Notes: generated from the letters alone by a model not told the origin. A stretch of 59,925 nucleotides of DNA from Verrucomicrobiota bacterium (GCA_028873125.1 JAGWMQ010000005.1:1-59925), one strand, 5' to 3'. Positions 97 to 10,569 are shown, counted from the stretch's first letter. Program-made: numbers and translations.

Positions 97-2391
97 CTAA
101 ATCCGCTTTTGCCAGCGCACCGACGCCGACTTCACCTGGCTGGAGTTGTCCCCGATTCGGATGATGAATTCCCCCGGCTCCCAGTCGTATTGCAGATTTT
201 CATTGTAAAATTTCAAATCGTCCGGCGTGATGCGAAACGTCACCGTTTTGGTTTCGCCCGGCTGCAAATACACTTTCTGGAATCCCCGCAAATCCTCCAC
301 GCCGCGCGCCATGCCGGCCTCCGGCTGGCTCAGATACAACTGCACCGTCTCGCTGCCGGCGCGTTGGCCCGTGTTGGTCACCCCCACCGATGCCAACAAG
401 GTCTCGTCGGCGGTGAGGTTGGTCCGGCTCAGTTGGACGCCGCCGAAGGCAAACGTGGTGTAGCTCAAGCCGTAGCCGAAGGGATATAATGGATCATTGG
501 ACACATCCAGGTAGCGGGAGACATACTTGAATCCCGGATCATTCCGATAGGGCCGCCCGGTGTTTTGATGGTTGTAATAAATGGGAATCTGGCCGACATC
601 GCGCGGGAAGGTCGCCGTCAGTTTGCCCGACGGATTGTAATCGCCAAAGAGCACGTCGGCGATGGCGTTGCCCGCCTCGGTGCCGCCAAACCAGGTTTCC
701 AGAATGGCGCCACAATGCGCCGCCTCCCAAGTCAAGGTCAAGGGCCGGCCGTTCATCAGCACCAGCACGACGGGTTTACCGGTTTTGACCAGCGCGCGCA
801 GAAGATTCTCCTGGCCTTGCGGCAGCCCGAGACGGCTGCGGCTGGCGGCCTCGCCGCTCATGCCGGCGGATTCGCCCAACACCGCCACCACCACGTCGGC
901 ACGCTTCGCCACCGCCACCGCCTGCTTCAACGTTTCCTGCGGCGAACGACGGTCCACCGGAAGATACTCGCCGAACGCCCGCAGCGTGGCCCGCAGCGCC
1001 GGATCGTCAATCAGGTTGGCGCCTTGGGCGTGCAAAACGGACACGGTGGCCCCGGCCACGTTGCTGATGCCCGCCGCGACGCTGACAGCCAGGCGCCAAT
1101 CGCCGCCGGCGCGCCAACTCCCCAGCAGGTTGCTCTGGTCCTCCGCCAGCGGACCCACCAGCGCAATGATTCCGGACTTCTTCAGGGGCAGGAGGGGCCC
1201 GTCGTTTTTCAGGAGCACGCATGATTGCTCCGCCAGTTCCCGGGCCACCCGCCGGTTTTGAGGCGTGAGGATTTCCGCGCGCGCCCGCTCCTCCGTGCAA
1301 CCACGATAGGGGTCGCTGAACAAGCCGAGCTTGTATTTGGCCTCCAGGATTCGCCGGCAGGCTTGATTGACCAGGGACACCGGGATTTCTCCGCGCGAGA
1401 CCAATTCCGGCAAACACTTGAGGTAGGCTTCGCTTACCATATCCATGTCCACGCCCGCGCGGAGGGCCAGTTCAGCGTCCTTGGACAAATCGCCCATGCC
1501 CCAGGCGGTCATTTCGCTGATGGCTTCATAGTCGCTGACGACGAAGCCTTGGAACCCCCACTGTTTTCTGAGCACATCGGTGACGAGCCAGTGGTCACCG
1601 GTGGCCGGCAGGCCGTTGATGTCATTGAAGGAAGTCATGACGCTGCCCGCGCCGGCCTCCACCGCCGCCCGGTATGGCGGAAGGTAATACTGATACATCC
1701 GGTGCCGGCTCATATCCACCGTGTTGTAGTCACGGCCCGCCTCCACGGCGCCGTACAAGGCAAAGTGTTTCACGCACGCCAGGAGGGCGTTGCTGCGGCT
1801 GAGGTCCTCCCCCTGGTAGCCGCGCACCATCGCCGAGGCGATCCGCGCGCCCAGATAAGGATCCTCCCCGGCGCCTTCCACAATTCGACCCCACCGCGGG
1901 TCCCGGCAAAGGTCCACCATCGACGAGAAGGTCCAGTTCACGCCGTCGGCGGTCGCCTCATCGGCGGCGACGCGCGCGCTGCGCTCGATGGCCGCCGGGC
2001 TCCAGGTGCAGGACAAGGCCAGCGGCACGGGGAAAATCGTCTTGTATCCGTGGATGACGTCGAATCCAAACAGCAGCGGGATGCCCAAACGGGTCTGGTG
2101 GACGGCCAGGGATTGCAGTTTCCGCACCGCCGCCGGCCTATAGACGTTGAAAACTCCGCCCGCCAGGCCGTGCTTGATCTGGGACTCCACGTCCTGGTTG
2201 AGCTGTGGCCCGGTGGCCGTGAATCCCACCGACAAGAGATTTAACTGCCCGATTTTTTCCTCCAACGTCATCCGGTTCATCAAACCGTCAATGAAGGCGT
2301 TCATTTTGACATCGCCGGCCAGCGGCTTGGCCTGAAGGCAGCCGGCCAGCAACGTCCCGATCAGGGGCGCAAACAGCCTGGTTCTTTTCAT
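97..2391 (-). CDS. bglX: Periplasmic beta-glucosidase, GH3 (BglX-like)
   Basis: Signal peptide; MTLEEKIGQL, DVIHG, RDPRWGR, CVKHF and VVSDY (nucleophile) motifs; C-terminal FN3-like domain. Confidence 0.93.
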   Translation of the reverse strand: MKRTRLFAPLIGTLLAGCLQAKPLAGDVKMNAFIDGLMNRMTLEEKIGQLNLLSVGFTATGPQLNQDVESQIKHGLAGGVFNVYRPAAVRKLQSLAVHQTRLGIPLLFGFDVIHGYKTIFPVPLALSCTWSPAAIERSARVAADEATADGVNWTFSSMVDLCRDPRWGRIVEGAGEDPYLGARIASAMVRGYQGEDLSRSNALLACVKHFALYGAVEAGRDYNTVDMSRHRMYQYYLPPYRAAVEAGAGSVMTSFNDINGLPATGDHWLVTDVLRKQWGFQGFVVSDYEAISEMTAWGMGDLSKDAELALRAGVDMDMVSEAYLKCLPELVSRGEIPVSLVNQACRRILEAKYKLGLFSDPYRGCTEERARAEILTPQNRRVARELAEQSCVLLKNDGPLLPLKKSGIIALVGPLAEDQSNLLGSWRAGGDWRLAVSVAAGISNVAGATVSVLHAQGANLIDDPALRATLRAFGEYLPVDRRSPQETLKQAVAVAKRADVVVAVLGESAGMSGEAASRSRLGLPQGQENLLRALVKTGKPVVLVLMNGRPLTLTWEAAHCGAILETWFGGTEAGNAIADVLFGDYNPSGKLTATFPRDVGQIPIYYNHQNTGRPYRNDPGFKYVSRYLDVSNDPLYPFGYGLSYTTFAFGGVQLSRTNLTADETLLASVGVTNTGQRAGSETVQLYLSQPEAGMARGVEDLRGFQKVYLQPGETKTVTFRITPDDLKFYNENLQYDWEPGEFIIRIGDNSSQVKSASVRWQKRI

Positions 2392-2572
2392 TTTGGTTGT
2401 GATCGGCGTGGAGGCACCGGCGGGCTTTTAGCACAGGTTCCCAGCCTGTGTCACAATAATTCCTCCTGAACAACGACGAGGTCCGGATGGCCGCAACTGC
2501 GTCGCCGCAAATTCAAGACGGTTGAACTTGAAACATCTCCTCGTCGTCGGGCCGTCCCCCCATCGTCGCCGC

Positions 2573-3478
2573 TCACGGAAAGGTGCTCACACCGACCGCA
2601 TGCTGGTCCAGCCAGTACACGTCCCCCACCCCGGGGTCGCCGACGAGATTGTGCTCGTTGATCGGGGTGGATTGGATGGGCTGGTTGATGTAGGCGCATG
2701 TCCACTTGTGAATCACCGAATGGCCGTCGGCAAAGGAGAAGCCGGCCGCACGCCCATGGTAACTGGCGGGGACATCCTGCAGATAACCGGGCTGATCCGC
2801 CTTGGTGAAAAATGTGCCATCGTTGATGCTGTCTGGGCGCTCGTCCAGAATCACAAACGTCAGGCTGGGCGCCCGCATGCTGGACAGCTTGCTGAAGGTG
2901 TGATAGACACTGGTGTTCCTGCCGGGGCTGGTGACCGGGTTGGGGTCGGTGGTCTTGGAGCGCGACGGTGCGCCGACGTAATTGTTCATTGAGTAGCTGC
3001 GCGCGCGCGGATAGGCAGAGCCGTAAATTTTGGCCACCGACCGGTCCGCCGGACACTTGAACAAGGTGGCATTCCGGCCCACATAAACCCCCAGGTAAGC
3101 GCCGTAGGGATAGGCGGAATGATCCACCAGCATGGCGGTGTTGGTATTGTCCAGGCTGAAGCCGAGGCTGAGCACGCCAGCCACCCAGCAGGGAGTGGTC
3201 ACCGTTTCACCGGCCAGAGGCGGCGTGATCCCATCCACGTTGGGCGGCGGCTGGTCGTTATGGTCGCCGGCATACATAATGACGCCCAAGGCCAGTTGCT
3301 TGGTGTTGTTCATGCAATAGACGGCTTGGGCGCGGGACTTGGCCGCGGAGAGGGCCGGCAGCAACAGCGCCGCCAGGATGGCGATGATGGCAATCACCAC
3401 CAGCAACTCGATCAAGGTAAAACCACGCGGCCGCCGCGGCAGGGAAACTTGTTCCAGTTTGCAGGGTGGGAGGTCCAT
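2573..3478 (-). CDS. Prepilin-type N-terminal cleavage/methylation protein with H-X9-DG C-terminus (DUF1559-like)
   Basis: [57 protein letters not shown] at 3478 lies just after the stop of the upstream gene. Confidence 0.9.
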
Positions 3479-9547: not shown

Positions 9548-9615
9548 GCGTTTGTAAGCATTTTATCCCAATGGTCACCGGCTCGCGCGAACAGAAGCAG
9601 CCGTGCCACCATCGG

Positions 9616-10569
9616 TCATGGATAATAGACGTTGGTGGCGCCTGGAACCGGCGCGGTCGTGTGATGAGACAGCCAACGAATATCGGGATCGTTCGGAACG
9701 CTGGGATTTCCGTTGCCGATATTAAAGCCGGTGTCAGCAGCCCAAACTTCGGTTATAATTCCTTGTGGCATCTGCCACTGATGAGTTTCCGCGTGGCCAT
9801 CGGCGAAGGAGAAATTACATGCATTGTTGTGATGTTTGGCCGGCCAATCAATGAAATAGGTATTTGAAGGATTGAGGGGCATTTCAACCGCAAGCCCGGC
9901 GTCATTGATAGTGTCTGGATGCTCGTCCAGGAGCACAAACAGATCCGAAGGCCTGGGAGCAGTGATACCGCTCTCAGTCAAATAAATTCTCCAAGGAGGC
10001 GTAGGCGAACCCGAAGTTCCCACCAGCCAATGACCGATGTAGTGGCCGTTATAACTTGCCTGTCCGTTGATCTCGCAGCCCACCGCCGCATTCATCGAAT
10101 AACTCCGCACGCGCGGCATTCCGTACCACGTGCTCAAGTCGGCCGGACATTTGAACAGCGCCGGATTTTTCATGTAAGGCCCCAGCACGGAAAACGCCGC
10201 ATTGGTCAGCAGCGCCGTGTTGGTGGCATCAATTCCGGAATAGGGCGGCCCAATGATTCCACCCCGCATGTCCCCGGCAACCCACCTGGGAGCAACGTTG
10301 TAATCCGGGTTTGGCGGAAAGTGTCCGCCATTGTCGTCCGCATACATCAGCCAAGCCTTCGTGATCTGGCGGAGATTGTTGACGCATTGGGTTCCCTGCG
10401 GCTGAGCGCCGGTTCTCGCTAAGGCCGGCAGCAGCGTGACCGCGAGCAAGGCGAGCATTGCCAGGATTACGAGCAATTCCACCCGGTTGAAGGCGGCCAA
10501 GTTATCACTGATGCCCGGGGTGTGATGATCCCGGAGCAAACCGCCAGTGAGGTAATTCGCGGGTTTCAT
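9616..10569 (-). CDS. Prepilin-type H-X9-DG protein, tandem paralog B
   Basis: A|FNRVELLVIL; same motifs as paralog A, with long identical blocks. Confidence 0.88.
   Translation of the reverse strand: MKPANYLTGGLLRDHHTPGISDNLAAFNRVELLVILAMLALLAVTLLPALARTGAQPQGTQCVNNLRQITKAWLMYADDNGGHFPPNPDYNVAPRWVAGDMRGGIIGPPYSGIDATNTALLTNAAFSVLGPYMKNPALFKCPADLSTWYGMPRVRSYSMNAAVGCEINGQASYNGHYIGHWLVGTSGSPTPPWRIYLTESGITAPRPSDLFVLLDEHPDTINDAGLAVEMPLNPSNTYFIDWPAKHHNNACNFSFADGHAETHQWQMPQGIITEVWAADTGFNIGNGNPSVPNDPDIRWLSHHTTAPVPGATNVYYP

Follow-up and report, generated by a model that had tools for sequence, protein, structure and literature searches.

The locus described here bears on how Planctomycetota and Verrucomicrobiota, phyla poor in SusC/SusD, take in polysaccharides. 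Both phyla encode tens of H-X9-DG/DUF1559 proteins per genome, which have no known function. We analysed a window of 59,925 bases, the beginning of contig C176 in the genome of a Verrucomicrobiota bacterium from soil or mine-water (3.74 Mb, 205 contigs, 94% complete). A small conserved system was found in it: an endo-glucanase of known substrate class from glycoside hydrolase (GH) family 144, a secreted protein with three predicted carbohydrate-binding module (CBM) folds, and an H-X9-DG protein with a predicted pilin fold that always adjoins the CBM-like protein. The core of the locus, which is a GH144 gene and, divergently from it, a CBM-fold gene followed by an H-X9-DG pilin gene, is conserved, and this is the solid new result of the analysis. 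Three proteins, in place of a family of thousands, make testing feasible.

Genes were taken from an open reading frame (ORF) listing together with Pfam and NCBIfam scans. On the minus strand, the gene of the CBM-like secreted protein of 930 aa (3484-6276) is followed by that of pilin-like 1 (2573-3478, 301 aa; N_methyl, SBP_bac_10 and TIGR02532 matches), with 5 bp between the stop of the former and the start of the latter, and then by bglX (97-2391), a GH3 β-glucosidase gene recognised by its Pfam GH3 domains and the NCBIfam BglX equivalog. The gene of the Fn3-GH144 endo-β-1,2-glucanase (6607-8436, plus strand; PF10091, XcSGL/CpSGL homology) diverges from the CBM-like gene over 330 bp (6277-6606), a region that by its position presumably holds both promoters. 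This layout, with the 5-bp gap and the divergence, is as an earlier note on this DNA had described it. No protein of the block matched a TonB-receptor, SusD, ATP-binding cassette (ABC) or major facilitator superfamily (MFS) family in the Pfam scan, and the block is thus, as had also been stated, without a TonB-dependent receptor or an ABC transporter. The window begins at the contig end, so the DNA to the left of bglX could not be read.

Pilin-like 1 was used in a scan of one genome per species, which gave 33 loci from metagenome-assembled genomes of Verrucomicrobiia, Limisphaerales and Pedosphaera. Nine genome loci (L110-L116, L131 and L142) carried a pilin-like 1 orthologue at 58-78% identity, and each of the nine had a homologue of the 930-aa protein encoded immediately before it in the same orientation (phmmer E 0 to 6e-152). 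The same order was observed on two metagenome contigs (L209 and L216), giving 11 of 11 loci, and the gap between the two genes is also 5 bp in L114 and L142. A GH144 gene lay divergently upstream in six of the nine loci with visible upstream DNA (L111, L112, L113, L142, L209 and L216; L115 and L131, whose upstream DNA was not visible, were excluded from this count). It was not found in L114 and L116, and the 453 upstream bases available in L110 gave no match. The flanking genes otherwise vary among the orthologous loci. In the Pfam scan, no importer of the TonB-dependent transporter (TBDT), ABC or MFS kind and no SusC/SusD adjoined these loci; an adjacent dedicated TBDT or ABC system had been named in the earlier note as a finding that would refute its reading.

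Because the order of CBM-like gene and pilin gene recurs in all 11 orthologous loci, the arrangement is more than chance, and at the level of gene sequence and order a functional partnership between the two proteins appears well supported. One could instead suppose that there is no functional link, and that an expanded, mobile family of paralogues comes to lie near carbohydrate-active enzyme (CAZyme) genes by chance or shares only regulation with them. The genome holds about 40 copies in 3.7 Mb, 19 of 34 pilin-like loci are without any CAZyme, and two further pilin-like genes of the block score low in codon usage and lack close orthologues, all of which would fit this supposition. The retention of one gene order while the flanks change disfavours it for pilin-like 1, and we regard it as highly improbable.

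Related cassettes were also met with paralogues. In genome G351, of the same order, a gene for a CBM-like homologue of 1267 aa is separated by 10 bp from a pilin-like gene downstream, and GH42 comes next; this pilin-like gene (L102, 11452-12374) is split into two overlapping frames by a frameshift or a sequencing error. In G008, the pilin-like gene is divergent from a CBM-like homologue of 1257 aa. Three loci from small genomes of one genus (L104, L105 and L106 in G018, G075 and G228) encode a protein of 884-894 aa that has the CBM4-like N-terminal domain in common with the 930-aa protein (E 1e-15 to 1e-17). Behind it, six genes run in one direction, and by size they are reminiscent of a cluster for type II/type IV assembly.

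The 930-aa protein had no Pfam match at E <= 0.01, nor did four domains cut out of it at E <= 10, and it matched no NCBIfam family and no PDB sequence at E <= 1. An alternative start at 6201, used in the database model, gives a protein of 905 aa. The structural model of this protein (pLDDT, predicted local distance difference test, 86.2) is a string of six β domains, in the order CBM4/16/61-like, Ig-like, CBM6-like, Ig-like, CBM6-like and a C-terminal domain of ~65 aa that ends in RFYKV. In VIA-align comparisons, residues 642-834 matched the CBM6 of CtXyl5A with a Z of 16.6 (141 residues aligned at a root-mean-square deviation (rmsd) of 1.9), residues 344-541 matched the CBM6 1gmm with a Z of 15.8 (125 of 126 aligned), and residues 25-236 matched CBM4-2, CBM16 and CBM61 with Z values of 15.0-14.7, CBM4-2 giving 15.0. 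Across the three CBM-fold modules, 120-160 residues were aligned at an rmsd of 1.9-2.8. The whole model also matched multi-modular CAZymes, as well as surface glycan-binding protein B (SGBP-B) chains of Bacteroides (6e57, E 3e-7; 7kwb, E 1.5e-6). As modelled, the protein is a triple-CBM-fold, non-catalytic secreted protein. Because no domain had a sequence match, CBM denotes here a fold and not membership of a CBM family; the name "CBM protein" given to it earlier holds at the fold level (Z 15-16.6) and does not extend to sequence families in Pfam or the PDB. The protein has 535 relatives at E <= 1e-5, and among the 120 listed every name given by the source was "hypothetical protein". Sec signal peptides were found on both this protein and GH144.

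Pilin-like 1 has the canonical prepilin site G|FTLIE (R-G-F-T-L-I-E), with G at -1, F at +1, E at +5 and a hydrophobic helix after it. It matched PF07963 N_methyl with 39 bits and TIGR02532 with 36 bits (cut-off 16.3), and the top named equivalog of its N-terminal 60 residues was GspG (TIGR01710, E 4.5e-9). The scores against DUF1559/SBP_bac_10 (PF07596, cut-off 23.3) were 31.6, 22.1 and 19.0 bits for pilin-like 1, 2 and 3, the latter two being the further pilin-like proteins of the block, and a pattern search found the H-X9-DG motif in all three. H241, D251, G252 and H253 are invariant or nearly so across 73 sequences. The family is large: 7956 of 8000 scored candidates passed E 1e-10, and the best 120 were 60-100% identical.

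In the AlphaFold model of pilin-like 1, built from a 73-row alignment (pLDDT 92.8), a helix of ~50 residues (22-72) is followed by a β domain. A VIA-align search of 48,161 representative chains gave 35 matches at Z >= 2, and 25 of the top 28 were pilins or pseudopilins (Z 2.1-4.9). With Foldseek, the N-terminal helix alone was matched (best E 0.058). The model thus resembles, though weakly, a pilin fold and not a solute-binding fold. This bears on the possibility that the protein is a membrane-anchored periplasmic binding or sensor protein, in which the prepilin helix would be the anchor and the globular domain would bind oligosaccharides. Such a role is suggested by the Pfam name of DUF1559, SBP_bac_10, and by an older paper in which DUF1559 is treated as a solute-binding family and 74 copies are given for R. 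baltica (PMC2754498). The fold search lent no support to it, since the 35 matches were nearly all pilins and no periplasmic binding protein fold was among them. No ABC or tripartite ATP-independent periplasmic (TRAP) permease lies beside the loci either, and a binding or sensor role seems very unlikely.

The (α/α)6 catalytic domain of the GH144 protein was matched by PF10091 with an E of 1e-69. Its closest solved relative is XcSGL (8xul, E 1.7e-104, residues 117-522), and CpSGL (5gzh) was matched at E 2.7e-48. XcSGL from Xanthomonas campestris is a characterised GH144 β-1,2-glucanase with the SGL-clan residues E239, F286 and Y367, the Glu of the clan being the general acid, with Phe and Tyr besides it (PMC12102758). 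In 8xul, the chain carries the E239Q mutation and is numbered with an offset of 14. All three residues are kept in the window's protein, E in G-Y-D-E-A-M, F in P-L-F-G-H and Y in Y-A-A-H-G, and it is likely an active endo-β-1,2-glucanase. The protein consists of a signal peptide, an Fn3 domain, the catalytic domain and a C-terminal domain with an RFYRV end. BglX scored 941 bits against the NCBIfam equivalog NF011678 (cut-off 666), and its Pfam domains are GH3 N (E 7e-73), GH3 C (E 6e-57) and Fn3-like. Its translated N-terminus has an L-A-G-C lipobox, hence BglX is probably a lipoprotein that faces the periplasm.

We tentatively propose, with somewhat less than even confidence, that the locus is a β-1,2-glucan module in which pilin-like 1 couples its CBM-fold partner to a type II/IV fibre machine. 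The module would serve β-1,2-glucan utilisation in a Verrucomicrobiota lineage with very few TonB-dependent transporters. The secreted GH144 endo-glucanase would be transcribed divergently from the CBM-like/pilin operon. The first product of this operon, the secreted non-catalytic triple-CBM-fold protein, would capture the glucan, and the second, translated 5 bp later, would be its cognate H-X9-DG protein with a pilin fold. After cleavage by the single prepilin peptidase of the genome, pilin-like 1 would be present in few copies, as a minor or tip subunit linking the CBM protein to a machine of the type II secretion system (T2SS) or type IV pilus (T4P) kind encoded elsewhere. The glucan-binding protein would thereby be kept at the cell envelope, presumably at the surface, or be carried through it. 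GH144 would cut the glucan into fragments, and in loci that have it, the BglX lipoprotein would finish the oligosaccharides in the periplasm.

The components that such a coupling would draw on are encoded outside the locus. One prepilin peptidase (Peptidase_A24, on C167) and four secretins were found in the genome, as well as T2SSF, GspI, GspJ and GspK on C94 and C35, where complete T2SS clusters lie. The T2SSE ATPase family gave 11 matches, five in frames of 565-698 aa and six weaker ones in frames of 365-603 aa. Only three TonB-receptor barrels were found in the genome, one of them with a plug match, and all are on other contigs.

The same components would also serve a different function. 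In what we consider the main rival, itself rather unlikely, the H-X9-DG protein is a cargo-specific T2SS pseudopilin that serves solely to move the large exoprotein encoded beside it, and perhaps GH144 as well, across the outer membrane, and is involved neither in capturing glycan nor in taking it up. GspG is the best named equivalog of its N-terminal 60 residues, complete T2SS clusters and four secretins are at hand, and the Sec-signal CBM-like protein and GH144 would have to cross the outer membrane to reach the polymer. To our knowledge, known T2SSs need no cargo-specific pseudopilin, which counts against such a helper. It is also opposed by some 50 proteins that share the C-terminal tail described below, only a few of which adjoin a pilin-like gene, and by the many pilin-like genes that lie beside genes of periplasmic or cytoplasmic type. 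A comparable case is Verruconatronum alginivorum, described in 2026. There, a PulG-like pseudopilin with 67 homologues is encoded inside an alginate-induced gene cluster, and a further pseudopilin belongs to the 17 proteins that a single-replicate proteome showed to be over-expressed on alginate; its authors interpret the PulG-like gene as type II export (PMC13274419), which is the view taken by this rival. We count these observations in favour of the coupling proposal too.

A third explanation, the full reading of the earlier note, is a retractile "fishing rod", in which substrate-specific fibre subunits bind the polymer and pull it into the periplasm. A hypothesis of this kind has been published for Planctomycetes, with dedicated pilin-like proteins proposed to fish polysaccharides (Boedeker et al. 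2017, as cited in PMC12078418). The short T2SSE-family ATPases of PilT-like length, the few TonB receptors and the lack of an importer in the loci would agree with it. However, translational coupling to one partner would suggest a 1:1 accessory subunit rather than a fibre-forming major pilin, and the glycan-binding folds are on the partner and not on the pilin-like protein, so that we hold this explanation to be improbable. That the pilin-like proteins form fibres, lie at the surface or take part in uptake is something we purely infer, and help in type II export would fit the data about as well. Coupling of a CBM-fold partner, export help and retractile uptake are not separable by the present data.

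The system may be compared with those already described. Like a polysaccharide utilisation locus (PUL) of Bacteroidota (SusC/SusD, SGBP, GH144 and GH3), the locus brings together an endo-acting GH144, an exo-acting GH3 and a non-catalytic multi-domain glycan-binding protein. It differs in having no SusC/SusD, in the predicted pilin-fold protein that is the fixed partner of the binding protein, and in the binding protein itself, which has a Sec signal and an RFYKV-ending domain in place of a lipoprotein anchor. The adjoining SusC-like TBDT and SusD that define a Bacteroidota-type PUL were found by the Pfam scan neither in the block nor in the orthologous loci. The locus thus works like a PUL yet lacks its defining pair.

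A second likeness is that of the CBM-pilin pair to pilus tip adhesins. As in T4P tips (PilY1/PilC with minor pilins) and T2SS tips (GspK-I-J-H), a large β-rich protein and a pilin with a class III signal are encoded in one operon, and assembly ATPases, secretins and the prepilin peptidase are encoded elsewhere in the genome. Unlike these, the locus has one pilin-like gene and not four minor pilins, its large protein is unrelated to PilY1 by sequence, and its globular pilin domain, in which the H-X9-DG motif lies, is roughly double the normal size. With the H-X9-DG/DUF1559 proteins (TIGR04294, PF07596), pilin-like 1 shares the family matches and the many paralogues, ~40 in this genome. It differs from the family at large, which has no assigned function, by its fixed triple-CBM neighbour and frequent GH144 neighbour. 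In the available parts of the literature on DUF1559, H-X9-DG, GH144 of Verrucomicrobiota, and polysaccharide use by pilin-like proteins or pseudopilins, no conserved pair of a CBM protein and an H-X9-DG pilin and no link to GH144 was described.

The association of pilin-like genes with CAZymes was also examined across the genome. A home-made gene caller predicted 2849 genes, and an iterated profile found 46 pilin-like frames, five of which are inside the true T2SS clusters on C35 and C94. Leaving these clusters out and counting the window block once, a tally by hand found a GH, polysaccharide lyase or sulfatase gene within three genes of 15 of 34 pilin-like loci, compared with 3 of 20 random seven-gene windows drawn with a fixed seed. 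One of the three positive windows is the window locus itself; the one-sided Fisher p is 0.027, and 0.016 with this locus removed from both sides. Within three positions of the pilin-like genes, the Pfam scan repeatedly showed one layout, in which the pilin-like gene is accompanied by a large LamG/lectin protein and a glycoside hydrolase. Examples are C60 (a LamG protein of 2175 aa, two pilin-like genes, MFS, ROK and GH125), C26 (a LamG/Ig protein of 1267 aa, a pilin-like gene and GH2), C177 (a LamG protein of 1003 aa, a pilin-like gene and GH2) and C85 (LamG/PA14, Ig/lectin, a pilin-like gene, GH116 and GH43). Related sets are XylR, an Ig/LamG protein of 1012 aa and a pilin-like gene on C161, and GH127, a DUF1349 protein of 1238 aa, a pilin-like gene and AraC on C148. 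The placement of pilin-like genes near CAZymes, which had been expected to be non-random, is so for pilin-like 1 and in the genome tally.

The C-terminal tail noted above, RFYRV, is the last strand of a β domain of ~65-80 aa (R-F-Y-R-V...P). In the window, such domains lie at 3487-3684 (minus), 8194-8433 (plus), 13600-13818 (plus) and 29886-30100 (minus). The pattern ends 55 of the 2849 predicted proteins, a few of them being chance matches. No Pfam or NCBIfam family covers the domain, and its structural look-alikes close GH18, CotH, RCC1 and other proteins of Verrucomicrobiota. It has the appearance of a sorting or anchoring domain not described so far. In metagenome loci, the tail was found in 7 of 109 genes at distance 1 from a pilin-like gene and in 1 of 62 at a distance of at least 5.

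Several observations weigh against the proposal that pilin-like 1 couples its partner to a fibre machine in a glucan module. The fold matches of pilin-like 1 are weak (Z <= 4.9). Of the nine loci with downstream DNA, just two (L111 and L114) have bglX after the pilin-like gene, and in five of the nine a secreted protein of 260-321 aa stands in its place (L110, L112, L142, L209 and L216). Among 401 genomes sampled from the phylum, 51 (counting this one) carry a GH144 homologue, and in 20 of these loci, from other Verrucomicrobiota (<= 48% identity), none had a pilin-like gene within ~9 kb. At one of these (G012), GH3 and a second GH144 were found instead, along with an ABC binding protein and a permease, and at another (G270) GH3 and NAGLU. 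Such ABC-linked loci of the same class resemble the window locus in having GH144 with GH3, and differ in their SBP_bac_1 binding protein and permease and in having no pilin-like gene. The pilin link is therefore tied to the GH144 of one lineage and not to GH144 generally; the orthologous loci were found by the pilin-like 1 search, and the GH144 search had missed them. The random-window control is small, hand-classified and dependent on the home-made gene caller. As a specific mark of pilin partners, the RFYRV tail was rejected: it occurs at 4 of 35 places beside pilin-like loci compared with 1.2 expected, which is marginal (P 0.03). A rule that a large same-strand gene lies <=150 nt upstream of pilin-like genes was likewise rejected (3 of 33 compared with 177 of 2599 other genes, not significant), so tight pairing is a trait of some pilin-like subfamilies only. 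Finally, relatives of pilin-like 2 and 3 are at most 42% identical among 213 metagenome matches, with no close orthologues.

The claims of the earlier note were thus upheld in part. The synteny it had proposed for GH144, GH3 and H-X9-DG genes was recovered for GH144 (6/9) and for the CBM-pilin pair (11/11), and was lost for GH3 (2/9) and in the distant GH144 loci (0/20). Of its substrate-specific pilin system with surface CBM, GH144 and BglX, the association of CBM, pilin and GH144 stood, whereas bglX proved variable and the tail marginal.

A wider proposal, which we consider doubtful, is that H-X9-DG pilins are specificity adaptors of TonB-independent polymer feeding in Verrucomicrobiota and Planctomycetota, each docking one cognate exoprotein that binds or cuts glycans onto a shared, possibly retractile type II/IV fibre. 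With it, the cell could catch a particular polysaccharide and bring it up to, or across, the outer membrane; the β-1,2-glucan cassette would consist of the triple-CBM protein, pilin-like 1 and GH144. If the pairing of the CBM-like protein with pilin-like 1 is a complex, it would be a new PUL architecture and the first function for the H-X9-DG family.

The two further pilin-like genes of the block, pilin-like 2 (8579-9547, minus strand; own-genome pilin hidden Markov model (HMM)) and pilin-like 3 (9616-10569, minus strand; pilin HMM and TIGR04294), are tandem paralogues. They are convergent with GH144 and divergent from the gene of a secreted PD40/TolB-like β-propeller protein of 1044 aa that ends in RFYRV (10687-13821, plus strand; PD40 E 3e-23), which is followed by an esterase gene from the gene listing (13826-14899, plus strand). 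Their N-termini are non-canonical, A|FSRIE in pilin-like 2 and A|FNRVE in pilin-like 3; both keep F at +1 and E at +5, with A at -1 and R at +3, and neither matched N_methyl or TIGR02532 at E <= 0.01. The own-genome pilin HMM recognised them with E values of 9e-76 and 2e-75, and TIGR04294 (cut-off 19) scored 18.8 and 20.0 bits, respectively. Their codon-usage scores are 32 and 36, compared with 94 (pilin-like 1) to 303 in the neighbours, and they lie in a stretch of lower G+C (0.579), which together hint at a recent arrival. Neither was found beside GH144 elsewhere, and their inclusion in the GH144 system, as made in the earlier note, was not supported. On metagenome locus L192, two tandem pilin-like genes precede that of a PD40 protein whose tail is of this kind too. 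Judging from this one locus, the partner of pilin-like 2 and 3 may be the PD40 protein rather than GH144. No homologue of the PD40 protein was found in 400 sampled genomes at E <= 1e-40.

The secreted proteins that follow the pilin-like gene in the five orthologous loci have no Pfam match and are mutually homologous, with a PEP-CTERM end in L110, L112 and L142. They are encoded at 4463-5245 in L110, 6206-6988 in L112, 11079-11957 in L142, 8901-9866 in L209 and 5082-6047 in L216. A member of this family is also present in the genome of the window, on C169 (11437-12270), where it follows a second bglX copy. Positions 1-1481 of the window are 89.8% identical to 12462-13942 of that contig (L223), up to both contig ends, and the C169 copy is either a strain variant or a second, duplicated bglX copy. 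No importer adjoins the C169 copy, which is a proxy only for the unreadable DNA to the left of bglX in the window. Past bglX, C169 encodes this family member, which is a PEP-CTERM protein, then a protein of 340 aa, an OmpR-type two-component pair and a resistance-nodulation-division (RND) efflux set.

Two other groups of pilin-like genes were observed. On C180 (L031, 285-12771), four to five pilin-like genes lie with a protein of 1337 aa that belongs to no family, a LuxR-type regulator and a Reg_prop/Y_Y_Y histidine kinase, the sensor type of the hybrid two-component PUL regulators of Bacteroides. In the window, a fourth pilin-like gene (47284-47994, minus strand) with the H-X9-DG motif and a TIGR04294 score of 30 bits adjoins an extracytoplasmic function (ECF) sigma factor and proteins of no known kind, with no CAZyme. 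It is bracketed by transposase remnants or genes, a Y2_Tnp fragment at 41626-42063 on the plus strand and DDE_Tnp_1 at 50099-51319 on the minus strand.

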